Shown here one piece after another: positions 1 through 19,342 of a stretch of 64,000 nucleotides of DNA (its first letter is position 1; each line of letters begins with the position of its first letter). The stretch comes from an archaeon. Lineage in GTDB: Archaea; Nanobdellota; Nanobdellia; Woesearchaeales; UBA9642. Under the pieces are notes generated by a model. It ran no database searches, was not told the DNA's origin, and was given only the letters and a program-made list of their open reading frames with translations. The position numbers and the translations under genes are program-made. The stretch is taken from positions 33,003-97,002 of the forward strand of contig JAZDHK010000033.1 of assembly GCA_043806035.1 (NCBI GenBank), written 5' to 3'.

Positions 1-3000
1 GGATGCACGACATACAAAATACGCATTAGACAATTCAACACTTCTTGCCAACACGGACAACGTGCTCAATATCACGGCGAGAAAGACGAACGGCAGCGGC
101 ACCTGGGGTCCTGAAGGACAGGTATTTGCACTGCTCACTGAGGATGAGCAGCAGCCCTGGTTTGTCCTCTCTGACGTGTACATGAACACGTGCACGCCAG
201 CATGCATCGGCACGCTCAGAGGCAACTATTCAGAACCGAACTTCTTCAATCTTGAAATAACGGGAAACATATCCGCACCGTACTATACGGAGACCCCTCC
301 TGCGCAGCCATTCATCATAACACTCGAACTCAACGAGAGCGATGCGCTCATTTACGCGTCCATGCGGGACAGGGCAGGCAATCTCGCCTATCTCGAACGG
401 CAGGGACAGTATGATAATGAAAGCCCTGAACTGGAATTGCTTGAAGTCATCTCTAGACCTGACGGGTATGCTTTTGCAGACAATAATTTCACATGGCGTG
501 TCAAGAGACTGCAAGGCAATACACCCATACGTGTTAACGTCACCATTCGCGGAAGGATTGTCAGCACGGATTACCAGTATGTCAACTTGCGCAGCACAGA
601 CTCGACGCCCGTGCTGAACGTGAACATCACACCAGACATCAACGGATTCTTCTCCTATGACTTGCCACAAGAACTCATACCTATTACGGGAAGAGAGAAC
701 AATTACACGTACAACTTGTCCATATATGACCTTGCAGGGAACGTCCTGCTCATCCCGTTGCGTATCGTCTATGATCTCTCACCCCCTCTCATCACCGTGC
801 AATATCCTGCAGGCCATCCTGCTCGTCCGTATGATATTTTTTCGAATGAGCCACAACCTATGTTCTCGCTGCTCACTGATGAAGGGACGCTGTGCAATCT
901 GACCTACTATCCTCAGGACAGCCTCCTGCTTTGGACGGACAGCATAGAGGGATATGGTAGTACGCACCAGCAACGGCCATCCTACCAAATAGATCTCGTG
1001 CATAATGCGTTCAACGTCACCTGTGCAGACCTCGTCGGCAACACCGCCAATGCACCGTACCATTTCTTCTTCGACAATGAAGGTCCGCGCATACGCGCAA
1101 TAACCCTTACTACGCCAACGAGCAACTACGATGTCTTCCAGGACGAGAACCACGTGCAGTTCTACGTGTTCAACAGAACAGACACCATCATCAACTTCAG
1201 CATGATGAACAGCACGGGACAGGACGAGCCGTACACGTACTGCAAGTACGACCAGGATGACGTTCCCTACGAGCAGATGGCACTCGATGCAAATTACGTC
1301 TACGGATTCTCAGAATCGAGAAGGGCGACAAACCTGCTCAGCCTCACAAGCAACGAAACACACTACATTGCCTGCGCGGACTTCCTAAACAACACCCTGC
1401 AACAGCCCTACACCAACTACCGTGTCGATCTTTTCTCCAGTCCCACTGCCCCGCTCATCTGGAACGTCAAAGTGGACAACAAGACCGCAGGATACATCAG
1501 GCATTTGACACCAAAACTGGAAGTGTTCGCCAGCAGGTTCTTGACCTCCTGCACATACACGCAATACGTGGGCACGGAGCTTCCACTTCAGCGAGACCCG
1601 ACACACAATGGCGTCTATGACTTATTAGACACGGACAACAATCGCATTTTCGATGACATTCTCGACTTACAAAACGGGTTCATCTACCGTTTTGACATCA
1701 GCTGTCAGGGTGCGGGCAGCGAGACGGCAAGCATAACCGTCATGACCGACAACAGCACCTTCATTACCATCACTGATCCAGAGAACGGCGAGGTATTCAA
1801 CGACCCTCTGCGAACCATAACGGTGGTGACAGAGCCGGACAGCAACGTCACCGTGCTCGTTAATAACACCAACCCACGATCGGAATTCACAACCACGCCA
1901 ACGCTCATCCTGCAGAACGTCCTGCTACGCTATAACGGCAGCAACAACATCAGTGCACGCACACTCGATCATGCAGAGAACACGGCACAGGACAGCACCC
2001 TTGTTGTGTACAACATGTCCGGACCCTCAGTTAACATAAGTCTTGCTATCAATGATAACCAGTTCAGCAACCAAGAGCTGTGGATGGTCAACGACACATA
2101 TAACCTCACCATGAACTTCCAGAGCAGCAATCCTCTCTTCGATATTACCAGGACACGGCTGGTTTTCGAGAATGCAACACATGCACCTGTTGTGTTCACT
2201 AACACCACAATAGGGAATCGCATGCTGCTCACACCGGCCGCTCCATTCGTTCTCGTGAACGATTACACATTGGCAGTGGTTGCTTATGACCAGTATGGCG
2301 TTGCAGGAAGCACTGCTTTCTTCACCATCCTCATCAGGCCAGTCCCCAAGATAGTCGCCACTAGCCCGCAAGATGGCATTATCGTCTATGATACGGAGCA
2401 GAATTTCTCAGGCACATTCACTCCCTATGCGGAACAAGCGTACCTGCGCATAAACAACAGGACGATCATATCGTCGAATCCAGCATTCCAGTTGACAAGT
2501 ACAACATATACGTATGCAAGCGCGCTGTGCCAGGACATTATTCCTGGATTGAATACGTGGACCGTTTTTGCAGCACTCAACGAAACATGGGCAAACACAT
2601 CAGGAAGCTTGACCCTGCAGCAAAGCCTCCCTCCGAATGTTACGTTGTTCAGCACGCAAGAAAACGTCTTTGTTGACGACAACACCTTTAGGACCAATCA
2701 AACGCAGGTCAACATCAGCATCAACATCAGCGACGATGACAATGGCTGGTATGTCATCGAGAATGCCACTCATCGCATGGCCAGCGGCAACTTCTCAACC
2801 CTTCCAGAAACGCACACGTTCACGCTTACCGGCTTGACGAATGGAGCAAGCCGTCACCTCAACATCACCGCACAAGATAAGACGTGCAATGTGCGGGCAA
2901 TTGCAGTAACCGTCGTTAATGACAATCAGGCACCACTCATCAACATAACAGAGCCATTCTACTACAATAATCAACTCTTTGCAAGCACGGTGACTCCTGC

Positions 3001-6000
3001 ATTCGTCATCGATACGGACGAGTCCGCCAGTTGCACGGTCATGTACACGCATAGCGGGGCGTATGGTGAGCCGTACATACTCTATTTAGGTAATGTTTCA
3101 GGGCACCATCACGAACTCCTGCCTGACCAGCAGTACTTCAGCATAGATGTGAACAGCAACGTGAACATCACGTGCAAGGACGTGTTTGGCAACAGCAGGA
3201 CCGTCACTCCTTGGCCAACGTTCCGCTTCGACAACACCCCGCCAGCTATAAGTGATTTCACTATCTCTTCCTCTACAGACAGATTCCTCATGACGAGCCA
3301 ATCAAACTATGAACGGACATTCTACGTGTTGGACAACAGCACCCGGCTCAAGCTCATCATGAACGAAGGCTATACGTCCTGCAAGTACAGCACGGTCAGC
3401 GAGCCGTACGCGGAAATGGATGTTGATTTCGACAACACGCCCTGGTCGGGCTATACCCGTTATTCTCCCTTCATCAACCTCTCCACCACCTTACAGGACT
3501 ATTACGTGTCCTGTGAGGATCCCAGCCAGAACGCCATCACACCTCCGTATCTTTATCATCTTGCCCATCAGGATGCATTCAGGCTCATCGTCGGCGTACG
3601 CATGAATGCCAATCTCAACGATACGTTCATCAACCAATTGCATCCGACGCTCTATCTTGACAGAAGCACGACAGATACGAGTTGCTCCTACCGGCAGTAC
3701 ATGTTCAACAACAGTGCATGGCAAGATCTGACAGTAGGTCCTGCAGTAGGCTTCAACGGGAATGGATATACTGTCTCTCATGCAGTGGATATGCTGAGCA
3801 ACAACACCTACCTGTTCAACATCACCTGCCAACGATTCTTGGAAGTGGATAGGGCAGCATTCATCATCCACACGGACACAAACACGTATGTCAACATCAC
3901 TGATCCAGCAAACAATGTGGTGAGCAGGGATCCATCAATAAACATCACCGTACAACACGAGAACGACAGCAGGCTCATCGTCTTCGTGAACAACACAGAG
4001 CAATACAACCAGACAACAAACGATATGGTACAAACTGCCGTGCCCATTCTCCTGCCTGGCAACGGATCATCGCCAGTCAAGGCACGCATCATCGATCATG
4101 CAACCAACACGGCAGAGCACACCATAACCCTCGTCTATAACATGACCGGCCCTCTTGCTGCGTTGACGTTGTTCGCCGTGAACGACGCGCCTTACGGCAG
4201 TAACGTAGAGCAGCTCACCAGTGCAGAGATACAACTTGACTCTCTTGAGACACCATCGCGCATCAACCTCGCCAATACAGCCATAACCGTCTTCAATACT
4301 ATGAATCAGCCGGTGAATTTTACGAGAAGCATGCCTCTTGTTCCTGGAAACACGGTACGCATACAGCTCGATAATGCTGCGACTTTGCCTGGGGATTATC
4401 GTCTTAATGTCGTGGCAAGGGACGCGTTCAACGCATCGGGCAGCACGGCCAGTTTCATTATTGCAGTAAGGAACGCTGCGAACATCCTGTCAGAAAATCC
4501 CCCTGCGGTTATCACGGAAGCGAATGCGTTGTTCAATGGCACCCTCACACCGTATGCGGACAGGTTTGAACTGCATGTTCTCAGACCGACGCGAGGATGG
4601 CAGAACGTCACTATATTCACTGCCCCTGCGACAACGTACGCATACACGGCGAGCTGCAGTCTGCTCGAGCAAGGACTGAACGAGTATACACTGTATGCAG
4701 TGCTGAACGGCACTGCCTCCTGGCTGGAACGTACTGTTGAGCTTCAGCCTTCAGGCGTGCCCAATCTCTCTGTTGATGTCACGAGCAGCGTTGGCGTTGT
4801 CAGCAAAGAGAATGCGACAACGTTCAGGACGAATGCATCAGCAGTAAACCTCAGCCTGACTTTCTCTGATGATGACGGCGGCACGTACCGGGTGAATGGC
4901 ACAAATCTTAATGTACAAGGACAGTTCAATGAATCCTACACCATCCTCCACCAATTCACGCTCGCCATGCAAGCAGGCCAGGACAGGCTGTATCCTTATG
5001 ACATCAACGTCAACGACAGGAGCTGTAACGAACTCCTCACTATGGTAACTGTCATCAGGGATGACAAGGCACCCATAATCGGTGTGCGTTCCCCCTTCCT
5101 GGACAGCGGCAGGCTGTACGCGGCGAGCAGAAACGCAGTCATCAATGTCAGCACAGACGAGCAGGCGACCTGTCAACTCACGTATACAAGTGAAAGTGGT
5201 GCTGTGCTTCCTGGAGAATTTGCAAGCGCAGACAATCGAACGCACACGTTCTATGGCGTTTTCCTGAACAACACACCCGTTGTCATAAACTGCACGGACG
5301 TCTTTGGACACGTTGGCAGGACAACCCCACAAATCTTAACATTCATTGTTGATGACGTCCCACCATCCATCCTCGAATGGGATGTCATCAACCCTAATAG
5401 TCGCTACTTGCGCAACAGTACGAACAGCACTGATTTCGTCAAGGACTTCATCATTTATAGAGGCAATGGTACGGACATCCGCGTCAAGGTCGATGACCGG
5501 AATGCAACGTGTAAGTATGATTTGAGCACCACTACCTTTGAGAACATGCAATACACGTTAGAAGAATATGACGTGCATAACACACCACCCTACTACGTGC
5601 AGTTCAGAATAGGCAGCCAGCTCAACTTCACGGAAGGAGAAGTCAAGACACTGCACGTCTCTTGTGCCGATCCTGCAGGCAACGTCATGGACCAAAGAAT
5701 AAATGCAGGAGAGACATCATTCTACTATGATCACTTCACGTACAGGATGAACTACACATCTACCATCGGCCTCTTCCTCGGCCTGTACATCAACAACAAA
5801 GAGAACAACTCCTACATCAACAACCTGAACGCGCAATTGCGCGCCATAACCTTCGACGCACTACGCTGCAGATACACCTACTTCATCGACAATGCTGGCT
5901 GGCAGGAGCTTGGCGAAGATATCATGAGCCGTGTTAATTACACGCACACGGCAACAATTGCTCTTGAGAACAACAAGACCTACCGCTTCGACGTGTACTG

Positions 6001-9000
6001 CGACCAGACGAGCCTCGAGCCAGAAACAAAATCCATAACCATCATGACAGACAATTACACCTTCATCCACATCGACACGCCCCGCTCAGGAGAATTCACC
6101 GATCCCGCACTACTCCTGCAAGGAACGAGCGAACCAGGCAACCTCACCATCACCCTGACAACACCCGATGACCAAAGAACGTACGAACTGCAAACAACAG
6201 GATCATTCACACAGCCCATCACCTTGTTCGGCGAGCCCGATGGGTTCAGCCAGAACACCATCACGGCACACATCAGAGACAGAGCGGACAACACCGCCTC
6301 AGATACCGTCATGGTGAGCTTTAACTGGTCAGGGCCATTAACTGATGCGCGTGTCGGCATCAACGGCCAGGAACCTATACCTATCACGGACACGACCGTA
6401 CGGCAATTGCGCAACATCACCATCGCACTCGACACAGTTGATGCGCGCCTCGATCTTGAAAGAACAAACGTCAGTTTTAGAGACGCAACACACAACATAC
6501 CCTTCACGAGAACAAACCTGCCCGATGCAATATTCCTCTCCTTCTCACCCCCACGAGTGGATATTGGCAGCTATGACTTAGATATCATTCCCCGCGCGAA
6601 TGATGGCAGTGCAGGCCTGCCCCATCACATCATTGTCAGAATACACCCCAACGCCACCATAATCACCGTAGAAAATCCTGCAGAGGACCACACGACGACA
6701 GCAAGCGTGCTCTTCAATGGTACGCTCGAACCATACGCGAACAGGACATACATTGCATTCACGACAAGCCATGACATCACCACCAGCAACCGCATGACCA
6801 CCTTCAGCTACACGAGCAACTGCCAAGATCTCGTGCACGGCTGGAACGACTACATCATCACCGCATGCATAGAGGAATTCTGCACCCCACTCCAGGGAAG
6901 CATGTATTTAGAAGAACGTATGCCAACCATCAACCTTACGGCAGTCCTGCCCGCATCCAATGTGTATTATGACCCAGCAAATGATGTGTGGAGGACAAAT
7001 CTTGCACGAGTGAACCTCTCGGGAACGGTCGTAGATGACGACGGCTCAACCTTCCTCATCTGGAACGGCTCACGCTACATTTACAACACCACTTACACGA
7101 CACAGCACGAATTCTTCGTCCAAGCAAACCTGACAACTGGCGTCAATAGGGAAGTGGCCAATAATTTCACCTTCCTTGCATTCGATCAAAGCAGCTGCAC
7201 ACCCACAACGCTACTGGCAACAGTGCTGTACGATAGCGCACCCCCTCACATTACCTTCAACTATCCCGTCCTGCACCCAGACAGGTCAGGGCATGCCAAC
7301 CAAATCTATGCACGAGAGGATAGCCCTGTCTTCGACATCAGCACGAACGAGCCTGCACGATGCAACCTCACGTACACCATGGCATTCACGGGAGGCATCA
7401 GCAACACCATTTCCTGCGATGGAGACTTCAGCACGACGCACAGCTGCATAACCTCTCCTATAGAGCAGAACACGCAAACGGTTATCACCTCCTGCGTTGA
7501 TGTCTTCGGCAACACGAACACCACACCTGCCATGCGCTTCTTCGTGGACAACATTCCTCCTAACATCACGTGGGGAATAACCACCCCCAATTACACCTTG
7601 CAAGTGCAAGACCAGGCAAGAAACTACACGCTCTATTACAGTAATCTCACCCAGCTCAACATCACCACGCAAGCGGCGGATTATGCAAGCTGCGTATACT
7701 CCAATGAAACAACACAGTATGAGTTCATGCTGCCCATGTACAACCAGACGCCGCTGGAACGACGATCTGCAGTGCTCGCTCTCATAGAAAACGTCAGCCA
7801 GCACTGGTACATCTCCTGCAGGGACTTCGTCGGCAACACCATCAACGATGCATTTAGAGAATACTACATCACCTTCAATCCCAATGCACTCTATGAGATC
7901 AGCCTCACCATAGACGGCAAGGGCAACAACTCATTCATCAACAACCTCACACCAACACTGCGTGCAGGTGCAGCGGACATGGAATGGTGCAAGTACACCG
8001 GACAACGATGGACGGGCAGCGGGTGGGTAGACACGCATCCACTGACGAGCATGACCGTGTATCAGGGAGGGGCGAATGCAACCACACCCTTGCTGGAAAA
8101 CAACAACACGTACCTGTTCAGTGTCACGTGCAAACGCCAACATCAGCTCACGACATTCCAAGAACGAATAATCACCACAACAGACACCACAACCTTCATC
8201 CACATCGACAACCCAAGTAACGGAGAAGTCTTCAACGACAGCATCATCACCATCGACGGCAGCGCAGAAACACCAGGAACAATTAACGTGAGTGTGCAGA
8301 ACAGCAACGGCCTCACCAGATATCCTGCCTTCGCGAGCGAAGGTGCATTCGTGCAGGACATAAGCTTAGTGCGAGGACAAAACACCATCCGCGCACGCAT
8401 TACGGACAGGGCAGGCAATGTTGCAGAGCATGCAATCAACGTCACCTTAGACTTGCTCGGTCCTGAAGTCAGCATAGCCGTAGGTCTCAACGGCAATTCG
8501 CCTGACGAGCACCACACGAGCTTCAGCGGGCAGTACTTGTCCAGCATCCTGCTCAGCATGGAATCAGTGGACCTCCGCTTCAACATCAGTCTTACAGAAA
8601 TCAATCTCTCCGATCAAGGACAAGTTCCCTTCACACGAACGTACGGCCTAGGCACGATTACCTTAACTATAGACCCGACGAGATACCTGGGCAATTACAC
8701 CCTGCGCATCAAAACGTTCGGCAACGATAGCACCATAGGCAGCAGCAAGATCGTCTTCCTCACGATAGACCCGGACATACCAAGCATAACCCTCTCTAGC
8801 CCGCATGATGGCTACGTCAACAATGCCAGCGTACGCTTCTCCGGAAGCATACAGCCCATGGCACAACTGCTCCAGTATGCCGTCTATAATGAGACGGGAG
8901 GAATACGCAGCGGCATCTTGCCTTTCGCGGACAACCTCAACACGACGTTCAACTACGTTGTCAACAACGCACTTACAGAGGGAAGGAACGATTATTATGT

Positions 9001-9097
9001 TACGGCAGTCCTCAATGGACGTTCGAGCAATCCGACGGGCGGCACACTCTACCTGGTCACCAGCCCGCCCAGCATACAAAACGTGACCATAGGCTGA
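1..9097 (+). CDS. giant extracellular repeat protein (putative glycosylated adhesin), 5'-partial, >3030 aa
   Basis: Frame 2 is open from nt 2 (DARHTKYALDNSTLLANTDN precedes the first listed codon), so the N-terminus lies outside the window. A single uninterrupted 9.1 kb ORF. It contains four diverged ~715-aa super-modules, recurrent D-x-[AV]-G-N and D-x-x-[AP]-P-x-I boundary motifs typical of Ig-like beta-sandwich surface domains, and very dense N-x-S/T sequons. The TGA stop is followed by GAGGTGAGG and the next ATG. No C-terminal TM anchor. Confidence 0.88.
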   Translation, partial: DARHTKYALDNSTLLANTDNVLNITARKTNGSGTWGPEGQVFALLTEDEQQPWFVLSDVYMNTCTPACIGTLRGNYSEPNFFNLEITGNISAPYYTETPPAQPFIITLELNESDALIYASMRDRAGNLAYLERQGQYDNESPELELLEVISRPDGYAFADNNFTWRVKRLQGNTPIRVNVTIRGRIVSTDYQYVNLRSTDSTPVLNVNITPDINGFFSYDLPQELIPITGRENNYTYNLSIYDLAGNVLLIPLRIVYDLSPPLITVQYPAGHPARPYDIFSNEPQPMFSLLTDEGTLCNLTYYPQDSLLLWTDSIEGYGSTHQQRPSYQIDLVHNAFNVTCADLVGNTANAPYHFFFDNEGPRIRAITLTTPTSNYDVFQDENHVQFYVFNRTDTIINFSMMNSTGQDEPYTYCKYDQDDVPYEQMALDANYVYGFSESRRATNLLSLTSNETHYIACADFLNNTLQQPYTNYRVDLFSSPTAPLIWNVKVDNKTAGYIRHLTPKLEVFASRFLTSCTYTQYVGTELPLQRDPTHNGVYDLLDTDNNRIFDDILDLQNGFIYRFDISCQGAGSETASITVMTDNSTFITITDPENGEVFNDPLRTITVVTEPDSNVTVLVNNTNPRSEFTTTPTLILQNVLLRYNGSNNISARTLDHAENTAQDSTLVVYNMSGPSVNISLAINDNQFSNQELWMVNDTYNLTMNFQSSNPLFDITRTRLVFENATHAPVVFTNTTIGNRMLLTPAAPFVLVNDYTLAVVAYDQYGVAGSTAFFTILIRPVPKIVATSPQDGIIVYDTEQNFSGTFTPYAEQAYLRINNRTIISSNPAFQLTSTTYTYASALCQDIIPGLNTWTVFAALNETWANTSGSLTLQQSLPPNVTLFSTQENVFVDDNTFRTNQTQVNISINISDDDNGWYVIENATHRMASGNFSTLPETHTFTLTGLTNGASRHLNITAQDKTCNVRAIAVTVVNDNQAPLINITEPFYYNNQLFASTVTPAFVIDTDESASCTVMYTHSGAYGEPYILYLGNVSGHHHELLPDQQYFSIDVNSNVNITCKDVFGNSRTVTPWPTFRFDNTPPAISDFTISSSTDRFLMTSQSNYERTFYVLDNSTRLKLIMNEGYTSCKYSTVSEPYAEMDVDFDNTPWSGYTRYSPFINLSTTLQDYYVSCEDPSQNAITPPYLYHLAHQDAFRLIVGVRMNANLNDTFINQLHPTLYLDRSTTDTSCSYRQYMFNNSAWQDLTVGPAVGFNGNGYTVSHAVDMLSNNTYLFNITCQRFLEVDRAAFIIHTDTNTYVNITDPANNVVSRDPSINITVQHENDSRLIVFVNNTEQYNQTTNDMVQTAVPILLPGNGSSPVKARIIDHATNTAEHTITLVYNMTGPLAALTLFAVNDAPYGSNVEQLTSAEIQLDSLETPSRINLANTAITVFNTMNQPVNFTRSMPLVPGNTVRIQLDNAATLPGDYRLNVVARDAFNASGSTASFIIAVRNAANILSENPPAVITEANALFNGTLTPYADRFELHVLRPTRGWQNVTIFTAPATTYAYTASCSLLEQGLNEYTLYAVLNGTASWLERTVELQPSGVPNLSVDVTSSVGVVSKENATTFRTNASAVNLSLTFSDDDGGTYRVNGTNLNVQGQFNESYTILHQFTLAMQAGQDRLYPYDINVNDRSCNELLTMVTVIRDDKAPIIGVRSPFLDSGRLYAASRNAVINVSTDEQATCQLTYTSESGAVLPGEFASADNRTHTFYGVFLNNTPVVINCTDVFGHVGRTTPQILTFIVDDVPPSILEWDVINPNSRYLRNSTNSTDFVKDFIIYRGNGTDIRVKVDDRNATCKYDLSTTTFENMQYTLEEYDVHNTPPYYVQFRIGSQLNFTEGEVKTLHVSCADPAGNVMDQRINAGETSFYYDHFTYRMNYTSTIGLFLGLYINNKENNSYINNLNAQLRAITFDALRCRYTYFIDNAGWQELGEDIMSRVNYTHTATIALENNKTYRFDVYCDQTSLEPETKSITIMTDNYTFIHIDTPRSGEFTDPALLLQGTSEPGNLTITLTTPDDQRTYELQTTGSFTQPITLFGEPDGFSQNTITAHIRDRADNTASDTVMVSFNWSGPLTDARVGINGQEPIPITDTTVRQLRNITIALDTVDARLDLERTNVSFRDATHNIPFTRTNLPDAIFLSFSPPRVDIGSYDLDIIPRANDGSAGLPHHIIVRIHPNATIITVENPAEDHTTTASVLFNGTLEPYANRTYIAFTTSHDITTSNRMTTFSYTSNCQDLVHGWNDYIITACIEEFCTPLQGSMYLEERMPTINLTAVLPASNVYYDPANDVWRTNLARVNLSGTVVDDDGSTFLIWNGSRYIYNTTYTTQHEFFVQANLTTGVNREVANNFTFLAFDQSSCTPTTLLATVLYDSAPPHITFNYPVLHPDRSGHANQIYAREDSPVFDISTNEPARCNLTYTMAFTGGISNTISCDGDFSTTHSCITSPIEQNTQTVITSCVDVFGNTNTTPAMRFFVDNIPPNITWGITTPNYTLQVQDQARNYTLYYSNLTQLNITTQAADYASCVYSNETTQYEFMLPMYNQTPLERRSAVLALIENVSQHWYISCRDFVGNTINDAFREYYITFNPNALYEISLTIDGKGNNSFINNLTPTLRAGAADMEWCKYTGQRWTGSGWVDTHPLTSMTVYQGGANATTPLLENNNTYLFSVTCKRQHQLTTFQERIITTTDTTTFIHIDNPSNGEVFNDSIITIDGSAETPGTINVSVQNSNGLTRYPAFASEGAFVQDISLVRGQNTIRARITDRAGNVAEHAINVTLDLLGPEVSIAVGLNGNSPDEHHTSFSGQYLSSILLSMESVDLRFNISLTEINLSDQGQVPFTRTYGLGTITLTIDPTRYLGNYTLRIKTFGNDSTIGSSKIVFLTIDPDIPSITLSSPHDGYVNNASVRFSGSIQPMAQLLQYAVYNETGGIRSGILPFADNLNTTFNYVVNNALTEGRNDYYVTAVLNGRSSNPTGGTLYLVTSPPSIQNVTIG
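1731..8230 (+). repeat. protein-level tandem super-repeat, period ~2.13-2.17 kb, at least 4 copies
   Basis: The anchor motif I-x-x-x-T-D-x-x-T-[FY]-[IV]-x-I-x-x-P-x-x-G-E occurs at nt ~1731, 3861, 6030 and 8167. The order of flanking motifs is the same in each copy. Copies 3 and 4 share the exact 19-mer accttcatccacatcgaca (near 6058 and 8196). Confidence 0.85.
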
Positions 9098-9108
9098 AGA
9101 GGTGAGGT

Positions 9109-12100
9109 ATGAAACATGCACTGTTCGTGCTAGTGCTGCTAGTCATCCCGCTCGCTCTCGCTGTCGATGTGCTACCAGGTAATCTCGTGACGAACAACGT
9201 CCAACCCACCATACACATCTTCTTCGACAAGAACACATCTGTTACCAACGCATCATTATGGAATGTTTCTGGACGCATGCCCGATACGTTCTTCTCCTAC
9301 GACCATGCCGTGAATGACACGACCCATTGGTATTTCAGCATAGAGCAGCCGTTGGCACACGGCAATTACAGCCTGCGATTCAACGCCACGGATGCACTCA
9401 ACAATTCTGACCCGAACAAGAGAGTTTATTTCTTCATCGACCTCATCAAGCCGAACATCACCGCACTCACCATGTATCCCTGGAGAAACGATTACTTGAA
9501 CGTCAGCAACCAAACTATAACTGTAACGACGATGGATAACCTTCCCGGCGTGCGCCTTATCGATGTCGTGCTGCGCAGGCAATCGACGACAACGAACATC
9601 ACTGCGCAGTTCAGGCAGATTACGTCCTGGGTATTTCAGGGCAATGCATCCATTCCTGATGGGAATTATACGCTGCTCGTGAACATCAGTGATGCTGGGG
9701 GCAATCGCGCAGACAGGAATCTTTCCTTCCTCATGAACGCAGAACCATTTCGCGTATTCTACGTTGCCCCTCCCTTCGGCTACACGGCAATAAACCCGTT
9801 TAATCTCACGCTGGGCACGAACAAGCAAGCCACCTGTTATTACAGCAAGAACAGGAACACGCCTTTCGGCAGCATGCTGCCCTTCACGGAGAGCGACGGC
9901 TTCAATCACCTCATTGCGAGCTTCCTGCTCGATGCAGCAATACAGAATATCACCGTCCAATGCATGATCCAAGAGGGAGGACTGAGTGACAGATTCAGCA
10001 TCGAATTAGGGTATGATGCGACACTGCCGAACATACAGGACATGAGCGTGCATCCCAACAACGGGCAACCCGTTATTAACGAGGACCTTGACAATGCCTA
10101 TCTTCGCGTACTAACTGATGATACGGCGCGATGCAAGTACAGTTTCAGCACGGATAACTATACGGATATGCTTCCGTTCGAAAATTTTTCCCAAGGAATA
10201 TTTGACGTATCAAACGCTCATTTCTTCAATGGGGAGATCGAGAATGGCAACAATTACACGGTCTTTGTACGCTGCGAGAATCGCGCAGGACTAATCAGCA
10301 GCGCACGCACCTTGCCGTTCAGTGTAGACTTGCAGGCAGCGGCAACGATAACCATCATTAGTCCATTGGCATACGTGCACAATCCCAATATTGTGTTCAA
10401 CATCACTACGACAGAAGCCACCACGTGCACGTATGACGGCAGGCCATTCGAGCATGGAGGAGGCACAAGAAATCTCTATACGGATCCCACGTGGTATGAG
10501 GACGGCAGCCACTCCGTCGTCATCGCATGCGAATTCCAGCAAGGCCTGCAAACCAAGAACGTGACGTTCATCGTCGATACCGTGCAGCCCAGCCAAGCCG
10601 TCATTGCCGTGGACAACATCAGCTGCAATCCCGAACGCATCACGGCAAGCTTCTCTGCCAACGACACGAACGGCATTCTCGGATACAATTACACCGTCAG
10701 TGGCCCAGGAGGTGTTGTCAAGGAATGGACATTCGGCAGCAGTGGAGAGTATAGCGGAGACTTGCAGGAGGGTGCCACGTACACGTGGAGGGCATACGCC
10801 ATCGACCGTGCAGGCAATGCAGGTCCTGAAGCCGCGCCCAAGAGTACGCGTGTGCTCAGTCCAGACAGCCTCTCGTGTGACGATACCTCTCCGCAGATTT
10901 CCTTCGATGCAGACACGGATCAAAATCAGATACGCATAATGGTTGATTGTTATGACAGCGATAGTGGCTGTGTCGACACGTTCTGGTATGATCTCAAGCT
11001 GTCCAGCAGCACCGCCTGCACATACACACGCTTGAGAAACATCAGCCAACCCGTGCTGCTCAATGATTCTGCAAAATTCTGTGCATTAGTGAAAGACAAG
11101 GCAGGAAACAATGCGACAAAGAGCGAATTCTTCTCCCTGCACATCAACGCAACGCACTGCAATAATTCGGAGAAGGATGGCGACGAATCCGACACGGACT
11201 GCGGCGGCAGCTGCTTGCCCTGCACGAAAGGGAAGCACTGCACGGACACGCAAGACTGCCTCGCCACGTTGTTTTGTGCCGCAAACAGCATATGCCAGCA
11301 ACCAACATGCAATGACACCATCAAGAATGGCCAAGAGTCAGATGTGGACTGCAGCGGTGATTGTCCTCCTTGTGCGCTCAACAAGACGTGCACAGTAGCG
11401 GTAGACTGCGAAAGCGGCTACTGTGCCAGCGGCAAGTGCAGCGTCGCCTCCTGCAACGACGGTGTGCAGAACGGCAATGAGTCAGACATTGATTGCGGCG
11501 GCCAATGCGTAAAGTGCGAGCTCAACAACCGTTGCGTGGTAGATGCTGACTGCATGTCCGGATTGTGCAAGCTGAGTTTCTGCACGAAGAAGATAGACGA
11601 GCAGGAGGTTCTGCCTCCCGAAGAGGCAAGCCACACGGCATCCATCGTGCTGCTCATCATCGGAGGACTGCTCATGCTCGGCGGTGCAGGATATCTGGTG
11701 TATGTCACCAAATTCGCATCACCGCCAGCCACCCCTCCTGCCATGCAGCAGAAACCACCGCAACGACCCGTGCTGCAGCAATCGAAAGGCCGTTTTCATT
11801 TCAAGAAGAGACCATCACTGCTGCCAACGCACTTCGCGCCAGCCCCGGAGAAGAAGCCGGTGCAGGAAGAGTATGTGGATGTTCGTGATTTGCAGACGAA
11901 GTCTGAAGAGAAAAGCGATGCCTTTAAAGAACTGGAAAAAGTGAGTTCTGATGTCAAGGATCCTTTCGCGGCATTGTCCAAAATAGGAGACAAGGCAATA
12001 GCGAATCTTGCGACAAAACGCCAGCTGGATACACAAGACATCGTCACGCTTGTCGAACATGCAGGGCAAGGACAGCAGCAGCTCACCGAGACCGTGCTGA

Positions 12101-12225
12101 AAAAACTCCTCTCAACCAATGCAATAACCAAGAAAGAGATCAGCGATGCGCTCTTCGAGCTTATGGACCAGCAGAAAATACGCTCGGACGATGCGCAGAA
12201 ATTCATGAGCGATCTCGACATCTAG
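9109..12225 (+). CDS. type I membrane surface protein: Sec signal peptide, Ig-like two-Cys modules, 3 Cys-rich repeats, TM helix, ~170-aa cytoplasmic tail
   Basis: GAGGTGAGG SD lies 3 nt upstream of the ATG. N-terminus MKHALFVLVLLVIPLALA|VD. DxAGN motifs (SDAGGN, IDRAGN, KDKAGN). TM helix ASIVLLIIGGLLMLGGAGYLVYV, followed by a Pro-rich then K/E-rich tail. Dense sequons occur only in the ectodomain. Confidence 0.88.
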   Translation: MKHALFVLVLLVIPLALAVDVLPGNLVTNNVQPTIHIFFDKNTSVTNASLWNVSGRMPDTFFSYDHAVNDTTHWYFSIEQPLAHGNYSLRFNATDALNNSDPNKRVYFFIDLIKPNITALTMYPWRNDYLNVSNQTITVTTMDNLPGVRLIDVVLRRQSTTTNITAQFRQITSWVFQGNASIPDGNYTLLVNISDAGGNRADRNLSFLMNAEPFRVFYVAPPFGYTAINPFNLTLGTNKQATCYYSKNRNTPFGSMLPFTESDGFNHLIASFLLDAAIQNITVQCMIQEGGLSDRFSIELGYDATLPNIQDMSVHPNNGQPVINEDLDNAYLRVLTDDTARCKYSFSTDNYTDMLPFENFSQGIFDVSNAHFFNGEIENGNNYTVFVRCENRAGLISSARTLPFSVDLQAAATITIISPLAYVHNPNIVFNITTTEATTCTYDGRPFEHGGGTRNLYTDPTWYEDGSHSVVIACEFQQGLQTKNVTFIVDTVQPSQAVIAVDNISCNPERITASFSANDTNGILGYNYTVSGPGGVVKEWTFGSSGEYSGDLQEGATYTWRAYAIDRAGNAGPEAAPKSTRVLSPDSLSCDDTSPQISFDADTDQNQIRIMVDCYDSDSGCVDTFWYDLKLSSSTACTYTRLRNISQPVLLNDSAKFCALVKDKAGNNATKSEFFSLHINATHCNNSEKDGDESDTDCGGSCLPCTKGKHCTDTQDCLATLFCAANSICQQPTCNDTIKNGQESDVDCSGDCPPCALNKTCTVAVDCESGYCASGKCSVASCNDGVQNGNESDIDCGGQCVKCELNNRCVVDADCMSGLCKLSFCTKKIDEQEVLPPEEASHTASIVLLIIGGLLMLGGAGYLVYVTKFASPPATPPAMQQKPPQRPVLQQSKGRFHFKKRPSLLPTHFAPAPEKKPVQEEYVDVRDLQTKSEEKSDAFKELEKVSSDVKDPFAALSKIGDKAIANLATKRQLDTQDIVTLVEHAGQGQQQLTETVLKKLLSTNAITKKEISDALFELMDQQKIRSDDAQKFMSDLDI
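11158..11583 (+). repeat. three tandem ~47-aa eight-Cys repeats (C-N-x4-[DN]-G-x-E-S-D-x-D-C-[GS]-G-x-C-x2-C ... D-C-x-[ST]-x2-C-x4-C)
   Basis: Read directly from the translation: CNNSEKDGDESDTDCGGSCLPC..., CNDTIKNGQESDVDCSGDCPPC..., CNDGVQNGNESDIDCGGQCVKC... Confidence 0.85.
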
Positions 12226-13581: not shown

Positions 13582-14091
13582 ATGAACGCGCAAGTGCAAA
13601 GCCAGATTTTCATTTACATCCTTGTTATAGTAGTTGTCGGTTTGCTGCTCCTGCTCGGCTACAAAGCCATCGGAAACTTGCGTAATGATGCGTGCAAGGT
13701 CAACGAGGTTAGCCTGAAAGCAGAGCTCGAGACTGCAGTCCAGGATAACAGCGCGTACAAGGCGTCTGACGTGAGAACATTCCAGGCGGGCTGTGCAGGC
13801 AGTGTGCTCTGCTTTGCTGACGCTGCTCTGGTAGAGGGCACGGGGGGCGTTGATTTTCCCTTGCAGCTCGGCAGGCCCGCAACGTATTTTTTTTACGTCA
13901 ATGACAGCATGAATGCGCACGTGCTAAGAAATGTGTTCATCCTGGACAATGAAGGCACGATGAACGAGCGGGCAATATTCATTCCTCGCGTCGAGGTGGA
14001 GCAGAACCTCACCTGCATCGAGGCAGTGCAGGGACTGTTCAAGGTGCGTTTTGAGGGCACGGGCAAGGGAACGAAGGTTTTCCCTGGGTGA
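13582..14091 (+). CDS. class III signal peptide (pilin-like) protein P1, 169 aa
   Basis: MNA|QVQSQIFIYILVIVVVGLLLLLGY N-terminus. An ATTAAAAG TATA-like box sits about 25 nt upstream. First gene of a tightly packed unit. Confidence 0.75.
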   Translation: MNAQVQSQIFIYILVIVVVGLLLLLGYKAIGNLRNDACKVNEVSLKAELETAVQDNSAYKASDVRTFQAGCAGSVLCFADAALVEGTGGVDFPLQLGRPATYFFYVNDSMNAHVLRNVFILDNEGTMNERAIFIPRVEVEQNLTCIEAVQGLFKVRFEGTGKGTKVFPG

Positions 14092-14094
14092 AGT

Positions 14095-15141
14095 ATGCAA
14101 AGAGGTGTGTTTGAGATCCAGTTCAACTGGATCTTCGTCATCATAGCAGGAGGCGTCATCCTCTTCTTTTTCCTGTCATTGATTAGCAAGCAGAAGGCGA
14201 CGAGCGACGAGTCCATCAACCAGGACGTGCTGCGCAGGCTCGACACCATCCTCATCAGCACCGAGCAAGGCTATCAGACGTACAAGGAATTGCATCTTGT
14301 CAAGACACAACTGACGTTCACATGCGAGGATACGTCTCCATCGCTGACGACGCAAGGCATCATCAGCAATTTGCAGATAGGCAGCTTCTCTGTTGACACA
14401 CCGACGCAGATACTCTTCACGCCACCCTCGCTCAATACGGACACGTTCCAATTATGGACGGACACATGGGACCAGCCGTTCCGCGTTTTGCCCTTTCTCT
14501 ACGTGACCGCCCCAGAAGTGTCCTTTTACATCGTCGAAACCACTCCGCCAGATCGTTCGCAGGAAATCTATGAATTACTGCCCGCAAATGTGAGCAAGAA
14601 ACTCATCACTGCTGCAGACATCAATTACTTGCCGAACAAGAACGACCAATACAGTGTGGTCATTTTTCTCGATGCAGCAGTCAATCTCGCAGATCCTCTG
14701 TATACTCCTTCGCAGCTGAAAGGTGACGTACGGGCAGTCAAGGTGGAATCTACTGGGGATGCTGGTGAGGTGACGTTTTACAAGAAATCGTTTGTGGGGA
14801 ATTTTTTCGAAAACGGGACGCTGCCTTTCATAGGCAACGAGATGCTCCTCGGGTCGATAGTGGCTGCGGACGCGCAGGCATACGCGTGCAATGTCAAGAA
14901 GGCGCTCGTGCGCTACAAGACCATTACTGAATTGCACCTTGCCCGGGTAATAAACCTGTCTGGCATGACCGATCCTACCTGCATAGGACCGTTGACCGCA
15001 GGACGAAGGACGCTCGAGTCCATGAACACAACGCTCAATTTCACAACGTCAGCGTTCCAGATGCTTGATTTATGCAGTACAGATTTGCAGACGAGCAATG
15101 AAGATCTCGTGAGAGGAAGACGATGCCCACTCATCTACTGA
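14095..15141 (+). CDS. pilin-like protein P2, 348 aa
   Basis: GGGTGA SD. MQRG|VFEIQFNWIFVIIAGGVILFFFLSLI. 3-nt gap after P1. Confidence 0.8.
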   Translation: MQRGVFEIQFNWIFVIIAGGVILFFFLSLISKQKATSDESINQDVLRRLDTILISTEQGYQTYKELHLVKTQLTFTCEDTSPSLTTQGIISNLQIGSFSVDTPTQILFTPPSLNTDTFQLWTDTWDQPFRVLPFLYVTAPEVSFYIVETTPPDRSQEIYELLPANVSKKLITAADINYLPNKNDQYSVVIFLDAAVNLADPLYTPSQLKGDVRAVKVESTGDAGEVTFYKKSFVGNFFENGTLPFIGNEMLLGSIVAADAQAYACNVKKALVRYKTITELHLARVINLSGMTDPTCIGPLTAGRRTLESMNTTLNFTTSAFQMLDLCSTDLQTSNEDLVRGRRCPLIY

Positions 15142-15605
15142 AGAAAGGACAATTGCAAATGCTCGAAAGCATAGGTGTCATCATCATCATAACCTTCCTC
15201 ATCTTCTTCAGCTTCAGCATCTACCAACGATTCCATGCCAGCGAGATAGCCAGGAAAAATCAGCAGCAGAACCAGCTTTCTGCCATCGATGTTGCAAATA
15301 GGATAGGGGAACTGCCAGAACTGCAGTGCAGCCACGTCGATGTTGTTACTGTAGGCTGTTTTGACCTGGTGAAAGTGCAAACCTTCGCAGCATTCGCAAC
15401 GTCTCCAGCATTCAGGCTCATGTACTATCCCCTCTTGAGGGAGAGCAGCATTACCGTCTACGAGACGTATCCTTCCCCACACAACTTCACCATCTACGAG
15501 CAGAATGCCACGAACACCAGCATACCATTCTTCATGCCTATAACTATCTACCACCCGCAAGAGCGAACGTATGGCTTCGGCTACATCGAGGTGCTCAAGG
15601 AATGA
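15123..15605 (+). CDS. pilin-like protein P3, 160 aa
   Basis: MPTHLLKKG|QLQMLESIGVIIIITFLIFFSF. 19-nt overlap with P2. Confidence 0.75.
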   Translation: MPTHLLKKGQLQMLESIGVIIIITFLIFFSFSIYQRFHASEIARKNQQQNQLSAIDVANRIGELPELQCSHVDVVTVGCFDLVKVQTFAAFATSPAFRLMYYPLLRESSITVYETYPSPHNFTIYEQNATNTSIPFFMPITIYHPQERTYGFGYIEVLKE

Positions 15606-16087
15606 AAGCACAGATGGAAATCATGGGGTTAGCTGTCATCGTCGTCCTCATTGCCCTGGGCATTTTCATCTTCATCGGATTGTCGGCACGGTTCGGCGAG
15701 GTCAACCAGATTGTGAAACCCGAAGCGTACAATGACGAGCGTCTAGCGACGACGTACGTTGATGCGCTCCTTCGAACATCCGTCCCTAGCTGTCATGCCT
15801 TGCATGTCGATGAACTGCTTCGCGACTGCGCCTTGAATAACAGGACGTGCGGTGCTTTGGGTAGTTGTGAGCTCGTGCAACTCGTCATCGAAAATGTCAC
15901 CAACGCCACGCTGGACGTGTGGGGGAAGAACTATTCCTTGAACGTCACGTATCCGTTGGGCACGAAAGGGATAAGCTTCAGCAAAGGACCTCCTTGCGTG
16001 CGAAGGTATGGTGTGGAGCCGTACACGGTGAGACTTCATCCGTTTCCGGGAGATGTGCTTGTAGAATTGTCCCTCTGCAAAAAATGA
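15602..16087 (+). CDS. pilin-like protein P4, 161 aa
   Basis: ATGA overlap with the P3 stop. MKA|QMEIMGLAVIVVLIALGIFIFIGL. Confidence 0.78.
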   Translation: MKAQMEIMGLAVIVVLIALGIFIFIGLSARFGEVNQIVKPEAYNDERLATTYVDALLRTSVPSCHALHVDELLRDCALNNRTCGALGSCELVQLVIENVTNATLDVWGKNYSLNVTYPLGTKGISFSKGPPCVRRYGVEPYTVRLHPFPGDVLVELSLCKK

Positions 16088-16103
16088 TGTGCTAAGAACA
16101 AAC

Positions 16104-16111
16104 AATATAAA
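16104..16111 (+). promoter_or_regulatory. TATA-like box (AATATAAA) about 27 nt upstream of the 31-aa ORF
   Basis: Spacing matches the other leaderless starts in this window. Confidence 0.4.
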
Positions 16112-16133
16112 CGTGTACGTCGGTTGAATCATT

Positions 16134-16229: not shown

Positions 16230-16233
16230 ATGC

Positions 16234-17160
16234 ATGGAAACTAAACCTTTGGCAACGGTTATTATGGCAGTCATCATAGCCGTGCTACTCTTAGGGATGC
16301 TTGCATACTCTATCGCTACTATCAAGAAGTTTGAGGACAGGGACAAGTGCAGGCTCACCTCGTGGGCGCAGGCGAACAGCCAATACCAGCCAGGCATTGC
16401 AGGCATCATTCCAGGACCAAAGTTCGATTTAGGATTACGCCAAGACTGCCCAACCTATTACGTGACGTTCACCAAGGACAAGGTCACGGAGAGGAAAAGC
16501 AACAGCGACGACACGGAAGTGCTCAGCGTCTATGACAGCACACGGGGGAAACTGGTACAAAAGTACAAGCAGCTCACACCAGACATGGTCAACAGCGTCG
16601 TCGCAGAACAAATGCGTTACTGCTACTACCAGTTCTGGGAAGGCAAAGTGCCTGTCTTTTACAACAAGTATACGGACATCAATGTTTTATCAACGATTGC
16701 ATTCGGTGTTGTTGGTGTTGCACTGACCCATGCGAACAACGTCCGCTGCTTTCCCTGTGCGGAATTGCACTTCAGCGACAGTGTTGATTATGACTCAAAC
16801 AAAGGCAGTGGTCTGTCCGTGCAAAACCTTCCAGAAACACAACTCCCCCCTTCTGAAAATACGGCAAGCATAGGCTATTATTTGGTCAACAGGAAAGGCA
16901 AGAACATGAACAGCACGTATTTTGATTATTTGAACAGCTACAACGGCTACTGCCAACTTACGACGGGCAAGCAGGGAAGCTGCCTGGCTGAAGAGCTCAA
17001 TGACATGGACATAGATCCCTATCTCGTGCTGGAAAAAGACAAGTACTACAAAGTCTTGCTTATCAGGAGGGGAGAGGAACGGGACGAGTACACCATAACA
17101 TCGTATGTTGTCCCTGCTGATCGGGAAGCAAAGATATGCACGGAGGGCATGGTGTCATGA
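16234..17160 (+). CDS. N-terminally anchored secreted protein P5, 308 aa (paralog of P6)
   Basis: METKPLATVIMAVIIAVLLLGMLAYSIA, with no clear K/R-G motif. Shares EQMRYCYYQFWEGKVPVF ... VRCFPCAELHF with P6. Confidence 0.78.
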   Translation: METKPLATVIMAVIIAVLLLGMLAYSIATIKKFEDRDKCRLTSWAQANSQYQPGIAGIIPGPKFDLGLRQDCPTYYVTFTKDKVTERKSNSDDTEVLSVYDSTRGKLVQKYKQLTPDMVNSVVAEQMRYCYYQFWEGKVPVFYNKYTDINVLSTIAFGVVGVALTHANNVRCFPCAELHFSDSVDYDSNKGSGLSVQNLPETQLPPSENTASIGYYLVNRKGKNMNSTYFDYLNSYNGYCQLTTGKQGSCLAEELNDMDIDPYLVLEKDKYYKVLLIRRGEERDEYTITSYVVPADREAKICTEGMVS

Positions 17161-18041: not shown

Positions 18042-18044
18042 ACA

Positions 18045-18053: not shown

Positions 18054-18075
18054 TTAGTTCACGCCTTGCACGGGC

Positions 18076-19087: not shown

Positions 19088-19342
19088 ATGAAGAAAGGTG
19101 TGGAACTTTCTATGAATGTCATCATCATTGCAGCAATAGCACTCGTTGTTTTGGTGATATTGGTGGTGCTTGTCCTAAACAGCGCAGGGCCTGTGGCGGA
19201 CACGAACAAGTGTGGCGCGGGGCAAGGCATGTGCATCGGAGAAGGCGATGAGTGTGGTGACGGCTACATCGTGCAGCCGTTGAGCAACTGCCCGACAGCA
19301 ACGCCGAAATGCTGCGTACCCTTTGGCGGCGAGCAGCAATAA
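19088..19342 (+). CDS. mini-pilin P8 with a six-Cys C-terminal knob, 84 aa
   Basis: GAGGTGA SD. MKKG|VELSMNVIIIAAIALVVLVILVVLVL, then C-x6-C-x6-C-x11-C-x6-CC. Confidence 0.82.
   Translation: MKKGVELSMNVIIIAAIALVVLVILVVLVLNSAGPVADTNKCGAGQGMCIGEGDECGDGYIVQPLSNCPTATPKCCVPFGGEQQ

Follow-up and report, generated by a model that had tools for sequence, protein, structure and literature searches.

A giant gene and its four cassettes

The stretch analysed here, hereafter the window, corresponds to 64,000 nucleotides of the archaeal contig JAZDHK010000033.1 (assembly GCA_043806035.1). It opens inside a giant gene that is the first member of a conserved collinear locus, the second being the gene of a membrane anchor (hereafter the partner), and both are followed by a cluster of small genes with pilin-like N-termini. 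In frame +2, the translation of nt 2-9097 gives 3,032 codons with the terminal TGA (9095-9097) as the sole stop, as an earlier reading of the letters alone (the sequence-only reading) had claimed. For comparison, the other five frames contain 46-273 stops over this interval, and the base composition gives a ln P(no stop) of -128 for the open frame. A mechanical list of open reading frames (ORFs) begins the gene at the GTG of nt 62, with a product of 3,011 amino acids (aa), and the open frame reaches the left edge of the window. The protein had been expected to exceed this length, and a database search bore this out: the complete product is P0001, of 5,076 aa, encoded on a contig of 111,102 bp. 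The window carries its residues 2046-5076, that is, the C-terminal 3,031 aa or ~60% of the protein, window residue 1 being residue 2046 of P0001.

A self-comparison of the whole protein by BLAST returned only the identity high-scoring segment pair (HSP), and chunks of 200-250 aa were used instead. With 250-aa chunks, significant off-diagonal matches are observed at offsets of 700-734, ~1,430 and ~2,150 aa, with 25-36% identity and E values down to 7e-33. A profile hidden Markov model (HMM) places four full copies of the repeat, here called cassettes, at residues 2251-2952, 2951-3665, 3664-4385 and 4388-5071, so that they make up the last 2,826 residues of P0001 (nt 617-9094). The sequence-only reading had proposed at least four super-modules with a period of 2130-2170 nt. 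The periodicity is confirmed with a slightly wider range (2,100, 2,139 and 2,172 nt), and the open-ended count gives way to exactly four copies, there being no fifth in the 2,250 upstream residues, and each of six per-domain HMMs matching exactly four times in the same order. Also, each of the four motif sets that had been picked out by eye recurs three or four times at a spacing of 706-732 aa, against ~0 in 200 shuffles, and the alignment of the four copies has 70 invariant columns, three Cys pairs included.

The copies are 25-32% identical in protein and 43-46% in codon-aligned DNA, and their third codon positions are 33-37% identical, close to saturation. The longest k-mers shared between copies are of 12-19 nucleotides. 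The longest is the 19-mer that had been noticed in copies 3 and 4 (ACCTTCATCCACATCGACA, at nt 6059 and 8192), the other pairs sharing at most 14-mers with a shuffle maximum of 13. This degree of DNA divergence and the absence of long shared k-mers rule out a recent duplication or gene conversion between copies. They support, together with the near-saturated third positions, the earlier claim of an old expansion, and the amplification is ancient, with its synonymous sites saturated. Giant genes with repeats are notorious for being mis-assembled in metagenomes, and the repeat could in principle be a mis-assembled, collapsed or chimeric product, or the gene a decaying pseudogene. However, with no k-mer shared above chance except the single 19-mer, reads cannot collapse or chimerise across these copies. 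The frame has no internal stop in 9 kb, and L001, an independent lineage, shows the same architecture, stop position and downstream genes. An artefact of this kind is hardly credible here, being effectively refuted and excluded in practice.

Regarding the family, a word-indexed search with the 3,031-aa fragment found only P0001 itself, which would suggest an orphan. This status was rejected, because 1,406 proteins came up at E ≤ 1e-3 (39 at E ≤ 1e-30) in an exhaustive profile search, so that the empty result reflects a limit of sensitivity. Many of these relatives match the Big_13-like domain D only. The whole cassette, defined as at least 500 of 716 profile positions matched as one collinear unit, was sought in the best 150 of the 1,406 and is present in 23 of them, as a single copy in 19 proteins, as two copies in P0005 and P0007, as 1.4 copies in the fragment P0006 and as four copies only in P0001. 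The family is marked by a collinear unit of ~650 aa with domains A-F in fixed order (P0002, P0005, P0007, P0025 and P0031 among others). Besides, P0025, P0054, P0029 and P0061 carry after the cassette an extra C-terminal domain of ~170 aa in which YLEKYPSTL (or LLKFPSSI) is conserved, either at the very end or further inside.

When 28 cassettes are placed in a neighbour-joining tree, those of P0001 form their own clade, ((m1,m2),(m3,m4)), sister to the cassette of P0002, which is the closest other lineage (26-29% identity to the P0001 copies). The copies are nonetheless about as distant from one another as from this cassette. P0002, of 3,156 aa, amounts to P0001 with one cassette instead of four. 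The amplification is lineage-specific and took two rounds of single-cassette tandem duplication, since duplication of a two-cassette unit would give (m1,m3),(m2,m4) instead. Moreover, the two copies in P0005 and P0007 group with their counterparts in the other species, a sign that these proteins underwent a separate duplication of their own. In 17 cassettes from many lineages, neither the three Cys pairs nor the Gly/Pro/Asp positions of the linkers vary. That the expansion was maintained by selection, as also claimed before, receives indirect support from the intact 9-kb frame, the invariant Cys pairs and the collinearity of the cassette in those 23 relatives.

With respect to the fold, Pfam matches on the repeat belong only to immunoglobulin (Ig)-like families (Big_13, Glucodextran_B and Big_3_3). 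Glucodextran_B (PF09136) scores 33.5 bits at window aa 2734-2817, above its gathering cut-off of 27, and a scan of cassette 4 by itself gives Big_13 (PF19077) 35.0 bits (cut-off 27); in cassettes 1-3 the corresponding domain D stays below the Pfam cut-off. An AlphaFold2 model with the four internal copies as the only alignment had a predicted local distance difference test score (pLDDT) of 47.8 and was discarded. With an alignment of 17 family cassettes, the first 470 aa of cassette 4 were modelled at a pLDDT of 83.7, all β, as an array of five consecutive β-sandwiches. Adding domains E and F, each cassette is predicted to contain seven Ig-like β-sandwiches, and the protein, all β and made up almost wholly of such domains, belongs with Ig-like domain proteins at both the Pfam and the fold level. 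Foldseek against the Protein Data Bank (PDB) returned only arrays of Ig, fibronectin type III (FN3) or macroglobulin domains (complement C3/C5, the Haloferax S-layer protein 7ptp, cadherins, NCAM and contactins), with a probability of 1.0 but a template-modelling (TM) score of ~0.2; therefore, the shared feature is the domain type and not a specific assembly. Domains A, B and C each have one pair of cysteines (C109/C153, C219/C261 and C318/C365) in a C-x-Y ... Y-x-C pattern inside predicted strands, invariant in 17 of 17 cassettes, and these pairs would form disulfides.

Upstream of the cassettes, the 2,045 residues missing from the window are not further modules. They form a head of another kind, rich in Cys and in Ig-like domains. 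P0002 is collinear here, its residues 287-3088 aligning with 15-2866 of P0001 (27.7% identity over 2,992 columns). The shared head, which lies outside the window, is Cys-rich and comprises CarboxypepD_reg, FN3-like and CYDYxSE...LGKGxC regions. A LamG-like lectin domain was suspected by eye at ~1290-1430 of P0001; it found no support, the PDB search of the head being empty, and is not claimed.

The composition of the giant is also distinctive. Lys amounts to 0.9%, against 4-13% in the other window proteins examined, Thr (12%) and Asn (9%) are the dominant residues, and this composition generates a strong negative guanine-cytosine (GC) skew over the gene (-0.10 to -0.24). N-x-S/T sequons are enriched 2.4-fold (121 against 50.5 expected, z = 12), with z values from -1.7 to 3.4 in 21 other window proteins taken as controls. 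On the - strand, at 33233-34996, a 587-aa protein combines DsbA/thioredoxin and GILT (lysosomal thiol reductase-type) domains, and it is a plausible candidate for an extracytoplasmic disulfide catalyst serving the many Cys-rich secreted proteins of the locus. Taken together, the sequons, the Cys pairs, the low Lys content and the DsbA/GILT gene suggest that the giant would be exported, N-glycosylated and disulfide-stabilised, forming an extended fibre of the beads-on-a-string kind.

The membrane partner, the pilin-like cluster and the conserved locus

The features of the locus are collected in Table 1.

Table 1. Positions in the window of the giant gene segments, the partner gene and the pilin-like cluster
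Feature	Position (nt)	Strand	Basis
End of the non-repeated part of the giant (P0001 2046-2250), Ig-like domains before cassette 1	2..616	+	Translation; weak Big_3_2 and Big_13 matches; collinear with P0002
Cassette 1, 700 aa, seven predicted Ig-like domains G-A-B-C-D-E-F	617..2716	+	HMM score 1020; per-domain HMMs
Cassette 2, 713 aa	2717..4855	+	HMM score 1065; alignment A1
Cassette 3, 724 aa	4856..7027	+	HMM match P0001 3664-4385; contains the 19-mer at nt 6059
Cassette 4, 689 aa, ends ...TSPPSIQNVTIG, 8 residues past an inter-domain PP linker; TGA 9095-9097	7028..9097	+	HMM match P0001 4388-5071
Purine-rich GGTGAGGT right before the next ATG, possible ribosome-binding site	9101..9108	+	Read from the sequence
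Partner gene, 1,038-aa type-I membrane protein	9109..12225	+	Sequence; Big_13 2e-16; 35% full-length identity to the L001 orthologue
Pilin-like gene 1, 169 aa, first of the conserved four-gene core	13582..14091	+	Orthologues in L001 (38%) and L002 (27%); start MKG/QAQQIF...
Pilin-like gene 2, 348 aa, N-terminus RG/VFEIQFNWIF, C-terminus CPLIY	14095..15141	+	Alignment A3
Pilin-like gene 3, 160 aa, KKG/QLQMLESIG...	15123..15605	+	Orthologues (46%, 33%); motif test
Pilin-like gene 4, 161 aa, KA/QMEIMGLAV...	15602..16087	+	Orthologues (42%, 26%); motif test
Pilin-like gene 5, 308 aa	16234..17160	+	Orthologue L001 20476-21315 (29%), start MKKG/TFSTLAG
Pilin-like gene 6, 294 aa from the MKA/QISS start	17157..18041	+	Orthologues (33%, 23%); motif
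Pilin-like gene 7, 265 aa, MKG/QLNKQLLGF	18216..19013	+	Orthology; motif test
Short pilin-like gene, 84 aa, MKKG/VELSMNVIIIAAIALVVL	19088..19342	+	Motif scan; orthologue L001 23149-23400
Short pilin-like gene, 78 aa, MRRG/VELSLNFIIIAVIVLVIL	19353..19589	+	Motif scan; orthologue L001 23426-23668
Cys-rich pilin-like gene, 564 aa, 7.7% Cys, MKKG/MAALEFVGY	19726..21420	+	Orthologue L001 23650 (34%); motif
Pilin-like gene, 222 aa	21417..22085	+	Motif
Last cluster gene, 476 aa, 5.3% Cys, N-terminal hydrophobic helix	22082..23512	+	Sequence; weak match L002 25295

The ATG of the partner lies 12 bases past the stop of the giant. From the N- to the C-terminus, the partner comprises a signal peptide, Big_13 Ig-like domains, a triple of two-Cys Ig domains, three NGxESDxDCGGxC repeats, a transmembrane helix (aa 843-867) and a 171-aa cytoplasmic tail. 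The triple is of the same domain kind as the two-Cys Ig domains of the cassette, and the protein is also rich in sequons (33 against 11.6 expected, z = 7.5). When the C-terminus of the giant and the partner are concatenated, one HSP runs across the junction to P0031 (6,098 aa), P0077 (6,362 aa) and P0048, and for this reason the two genes of the window correspond to one type-I membrane protein in other lineages. In these fused relatives the order is signal peptide, CC-rich head, Ig stalk, cassette, two-Cys triple, CGGxC repeats, transmembrane helix and tail. The split between giant and anchor is also found in L001, L041, L042 and L045. For L002, the split looks like a 1-nt frameshift: at ~9950-10040, P0048 (2,341 aa, lacking a signal peptide) shares 37 nt with the tail of the preceding ORF, of >3,704 aa, and reading continues smoothly in the other frame (...ELGTGSG/INGAEYLAADG...). 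This indicates a frameshift, either a sequencing error or real, within a stretch that probably encodes one protein of ~6,000 aa.

The tail of the anchor has a motif of its own, D-[IVAP]-F-x-[EKQ]-L, which is present in one to three copies in 8 of 11 anchor or fused proteins (P0031, P0041, P0048, P0049, P0055, L001 14775-17861 and L042 26128-29031 among the carriers) and never in the very long ectodomains of these proteins. The window partner has DAFKEL and DPFAAL at aa 937-956, and the motif may be a docking site for a cytoplasmic partner. At the other side of the split, the giants P0001, P0002, P0005, P0007, P0013, P0023, P0033, P0045 and P0050 all end 8-13 residues past an inter-domain GP/PP linker, in a stretch that alternates as [IV]-x-[IV]-x (for example, ...SPPSIQNVTIG in the window, nt 9056-9097, ...SPEITNISIT and ...GPDSTIIIE). 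Such an end looks like the orphan first β-strand of a missing domain, and this strand may be donated to the first domain of the anchor protein.

Downstream, 12 genes on the + strand (13582-23512) are orthologous and collinear with the genes that follow P0002 and P0048, at 23-46% identity. Their N-termini, conserved among orthologues, show [KR][GA], then Q, V or M, and then a hydrophobic helix. A FlaFind-like prepilin pattern, [KR][GA]-x followed directly by a hydrophobic helix, is present in 7 of 10 neighbours and in none of 21 controls, and 10 of its 15 matches on both strands of the whole window fall at 14-22 kb. The two short ORFs of the cluster, with textbook prepilin-like N-termini but hidden by ORF-length cut-offs, came to light when every ORF of 30 aa or more was scanned for the motif, and their products would be candidate major filament subunits; both underlie a longer ORF on the - strand (19175-19633), which is probably spurious. 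The family of pilin-like gene 2 (~350 aa) comprises at least 241 homologue clusters, all of them named 'hypothetical protein'. Between the anchor gene and the cluster, a 191-aa ORF on the - strand (12463-13038) has several hydrophobic segments and no family match, and L001 lacks an equivalent at that position.

The same arrangement is conserved in L001, L002 and L040-L045. The nine loci, the window included, come from genomes with GC contents of 33-56%, and in every one of them a core of genes for ~165, 350, 160 and 158 aa follows the large protein (or the giant plus its anchor). As a single polypeptide the large protein measures 2,001-6,098 aa across loci, and the giant and anchor of the window add up to 6,114 aa. 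The anchor, or a fused transmembrane tail, and the four-gene core occur together with the cassette family in the window, L001, L002, L040, L041 and L042. In addition, relatives carry one to three more secreted proteins of ~950-1,260 aa directly upstream of the giant (L001 2460-5330, L040 3434-9854 and L042 6668-9898). The product of L001 2460-5330 has a prepilin-like start, MRSKRGQ/FTLFVILGIVLIAAF, and weakly resembles the anchor protein. On the present contig the corresponding region falls outside the window.

As for the source organism, the window encodes RpoN, an Rpb3-type RpoD, S13, S4, PCNA, a B12-dependent ribonucleotide reductase (RNR), SufBCDS, POR and IMPDH. RpoD is 47-54% identical to metagenome-assembled genomes of Candidatus Woesearchaeota and Nanoarchaeia, and less so to other archaea. 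Where homologues of the 348-aa neighbour are named, they belong exclusively to Woesearchaeota, Nanoarchaeota/Nanoarchaeia and 'DPANN group' archaea. The GC content is even along the whole window and matches that of the giant gene. A phage or mobile element was considered and is ruled out by this matching GC and by the RNA polymerase/ribosomal cluster, RNR, Suf, POR and PCNA. The window is a segment of a cellular archaeal chromosome, from a DPANN archaeon related to Woesearchaeota/Nanoarchaeia. Of the 209 aa of the RpoN/Rpb10 ORF (26652-27281, -), the 58-residue domain takes up aa 146-202, close to the C-terminus; either the mechanical start lies too far upstream or the protein has an unusual N-terminal extension.

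Proposed role and alternatives

For the giant, we infer with moderate confidence that the most likely role is that of a long-reach adhesin or spacer stalk, held by the co-encoded anchor. Based on the domain order in the fused relatives, the cassettes would be membrane-proximal and the Cys-rich N-terminus would be the distal, probably binding, end of the stalk. An Ig-like domain is usually ~4 nm long. One cassette would measure ~25-30 nm, and the three extra cassettes (21 domains) would add ~80-90 nm of reach. In the window organism, the stalk is a separate polypeptide, presumably held non-covalently by the adjoining membrane partner, and the cytoplasmic tail, through its conserved D-x-F-x-E-L motifs, would couple the stalk to the cell interior. 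The function of the stalk would also be linked to a filament or surface complex of the pilin-like proteins. An episymbiotic lifestyle is typical of DPANN archaea, and this lifestyle, together with the co-inheritance of the pilin-like genes, makes an attachment role the most likely one, the locus being a candidate cell-attachment apparatus. A more specific version, quite improbable as a whole, would make the locus the host-attachment apparatus of Woesearchaeota-like DPANN, composed of the giant Ig stalk of variable length with its Cys-rich head, the anchor with the D-x-F-x-E-L motifs in its tail, and a dedicated set of ~12 pilin-like proteins. The cassette would then be more than a passive spacer, namely a titin-like super-repeat that binds a periodic partner (the co-encoded filament or the envelope) and whose number (1, 2 or 4) would act as a ruler of the distance between cell and host.

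Several observations weigh against an anchored adhesin or stalk. The head has no recognised binding or catalytic domain, its Pfam matches being Ig-like and CarboxypepD_reg only, and a 1,450-aa head query gave no PDB sequence match at E ≤ 1; for this reason the term adhesin derives from architecture and context. The annotated start of P0001 (MLIYFVGEHACQ...), ~6.1 kb upstream of nt 1, has no signal peptide. This 5' end is suspect because residue 287 of P0002 aligns with residue 15 of P0001; probably the gene call is 5'-truncated, or the first ~270 codons lie in a separate or frameshifted ORF, and the true N-terminus is probably further upstream, outside the window. Also, the giant has no membrane anchor of its own: there is no hydrophobic segment at its C-terminus (...SPPSIQNVTIG), and neither the C-terminal transmembrane helix nor the PGF-CTERM or lipid anchor looked for as marks of an archaeal S-layer glycoprotein is present, and the tether to the partner is a predicted one. 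The cassette is absent from the large proteins of L043-L045 and is therefore not essential to the locus; it is a stalk component confined to one sub-lineage, within a more widely conserved design. The 12 small proteins, in turn, match no curated pilin or class-III-signal model. No match at E ≤ 1 was obtained to Pilin_N or Class_IIIsignal (Pfam) or to TIGR02537 (NCBIfam), and searches of Pfam, NCBIfam and PHROGs gave only noise-level matches to transmembrane helices, which is why these proteins are called pilin-like and not pilins. Moreover, no secretion ATPase, TadC/FlaJ or prepilin peptidase adjoins the nine loci or is recognised in the 64-kb window, as judged from the called genes of the nine loci (precomputed Pfam) and the scanned window ORFs. 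For the peptidase (FlaK/PibD), none was recognised in the window, and the 191-aa ORF with several hydrophobic segments (12463-13038, -) has no family match. A FlaI/PilB-type ATPase and TadC/FlaJ could be encoded elsewhere in the genome. Finally, expression and glycosylation are predicted, and a host is presumed.

The strict synteny of the large protein with the four-gene pilin-like core in nine loci, and the lack of a transmembrane segment in the giant, would also be expected if the giant were a PilY1/PilC-like adhesin, located at the tip or along the shaft of a filament resembling a type IV pilus (T4P) made by the co-encoded pilin-like proteins, and not tethered to the partner. In bacteria, PilY1/PilC adhesins are carried on complexes of minor pilins. 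Large pilus-tip adhesins have been proposed in archaeal T4P loci (Makarova et al. 2016, PMC4858521), and the giants of Omnitrophota adjoin genes resembling type II secretion systems (T2SS) or T4P and small genes with class-III signals (West-Roberts et al., bioRxiv 10.1101/2023.11.21.568195). However, the fused relatives, among them P0031, P0077 and the L043 protein of 2,001 aa, have the type-I membrane topology, with a transmembrane helix at the C-terminal side and a cytoplasmic tail, relatives such as P0005, P0007 and P0050 begin with signals of the Sec type and not of class III, and neither a pilin model match nor adjacent T4P machinery accompanies the cluster. This pilus-borne arrangement is therefore considered unlikely.

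On the other hand, the giant could be a structural protein of the envelope, whose Ig array forms or props an outer layer such as an S-layer-like canopy or sheath. The third Foldseek match is the S-layer glycoprotein of Haloferax volcanii (7ptp), the sequon density is high, and archaeal T4P loci often hold S-layer-like Cys-rich proteins with a C-terminal transmembrane helix (PMC4858521). Nonetheless, the S-layer match has a TM score of ~0.2, no better than the matches to complement or cadherins, and the approximately three-fold variation in length between lineages (2,001 to >6,000 aa) is hard to accommodate in a lattice whose geometry is fixed. A receptor or adhesin would account better for the Cys-rich distal head and for the motifs of the cytoplasmic tail, and a structural envelope role appears likewise unlikely.

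Then, the anchored adhesin or spacer stalk is the reading retained here. No description of the P0001 family, the cassette or the locus was found in open-access papers and preprints. DPANN archaea account for much of the diversity of archaea, and a life in attachment to other cells is assumed for most of them. To our knowledge, the proteins that make this contact are largely unknown. The locus, whose genes are all annotated as 'hypothetical' and whose small proteins have no Pfam model, is a concrete candidate for the cell contact of Woesearchaeota-like archaea. In a cryo-electron tomography (cryo-ET) study of Nanobdellota YN1 from 2024 (PMC11420986), the components of the attachment organelle are stated to be unidentified. 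The genes described here offer testable targets for antibodies, metaproteomics and cryo-ET of fibres, and the seed alignments A1, A2 and A3 can serve for new family models. Moreover, they illustrate how the length of a stalk evolves, an entire seven-domain cassette being duplicated and its copies then diverging deeply, and that stalk and membrane anchor can exist either fused in a single polypeptide or as two.

Comparison with known systems

The closest resemblance in overall design is to the giant Ig-repeat adhesins of bacteria (SiiE, LapA/MpIBP, Bap/Ebh and the 7,651-aa adhesin of Mobiluncus, PMC10619420). These are also surface proteins of several thousand residues in which a tandem array of Ig-like extender domains projects a distal binding region, and likewise the largest gene of a small genome. 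However, P0001 is archaeal, probably Sec-exported and N-glycosylated, and would be neither a substrate of a type I secretion system (T1SS) with repeats-in-toxin (RTX) signals nor a sortase substrate. In this regard, SiiE, LapA and MpIBP are marked by C-terminal RTX repeats or a T1SS signal and by an N-terminal retention module, and no RTX/HemolysinCabind or related Pfam match was found in the giant. Its predicted cross-links are disulfides and not Ca2+ or isopeptide/ester bonds, its repeat is a heterogeneous seven-domain cassette at 25-32% identity whereas theirs are near-identical single domains, and its membrane anchor is a separate, co-encoded protein.

The surroundings of the gene recall the archaeal T4P loci predicted by Makarova et al. 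2016 (PMC4858521), in which minor pilins accompany a large adhesin that carries a signal peptide and an S-layer-like, Cys-rich protein whose transmembrane helix is C-terminal. Islands of unrecognisable pilins ('dark matter') have been reported in DPANN genomes (Makarova et al. 2019, PMC6393860). The present locus likewise combines numerous small proteins whose N-termini resemble class-III signals with a large protein bearing a signal peptide and with a Cys-rich one that has its transmembrane helix at the C-terminal side, and in both cases the genes are fast-evolving and unannotated. Nevertheless, in the nine loci studied here there is no adjacent ATPase, TadC or peptidase and no arCOG or Pfam pilin match. 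Also, the giant of the window is 5-6 times larger, and neither cassette amplification nor fission and fusion of the anchor is described for those loci.

A further comparison is with the giants of Omnitrophota, which also have small neighbours resembling class-III-signal genes (West-Roberts et al., bioRxiv 10.1101/2023.11.21.568195). The shared features are a giant surface protein in an ultra-small, host-dependent prokaryote and its position beside such genes. In contrast, the Omnitrophota proteins are bacterial, of 10-85 thousand aa, contain enzymatic domains and are preceded by GspD/E/F, whereas P0001 is archaeal, has Ig-like domains only and lies near no recognisable machinery.

The organisation of the repeat itself finds its parallels elsewhere. 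In the A-band of titin, Ig and FN3 domains form super-repeats of 7 and 11 domains, and this intracellular ruler has a period that matches the thick filament. Titin and the giant share a fixed-order block of different Ig-like domains, each of which resembles its counterpart in other blocks more than its neighbours. Nonetheless, titin is eukaryotic and no periodic partner is known for the cassette, so that the likeness is one of analogy and not homology. Periscope adhesins (SasG and Aap), on the other hand, are characterised by near-identical DNA repeats and rapid changes in copy number. In common with them, the number of modules between anchor and tip sets the length of the stalk, and this length differs between lineages. 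However, the cassettes are far from near-identical, and because their DNA is only 43-46% identical the length of the stalk is fixed and not phase-variable.

In conclusion, giant Ig-repeat surface proteins are common in prokaryotes, and the protein kind found here is a familiar one. What would be new, as far as sequence can tell, is an archaeal and putatively glycosylated member whose cassette underwent an ancient quadruplication, which is split from its anchor and which belongs to a widespread and wholly unannotated locus of Woesearchaeota. With its role predicted from architecture and context, it represents a good lead for the study of cell-cell attachment in DPANN archaea.

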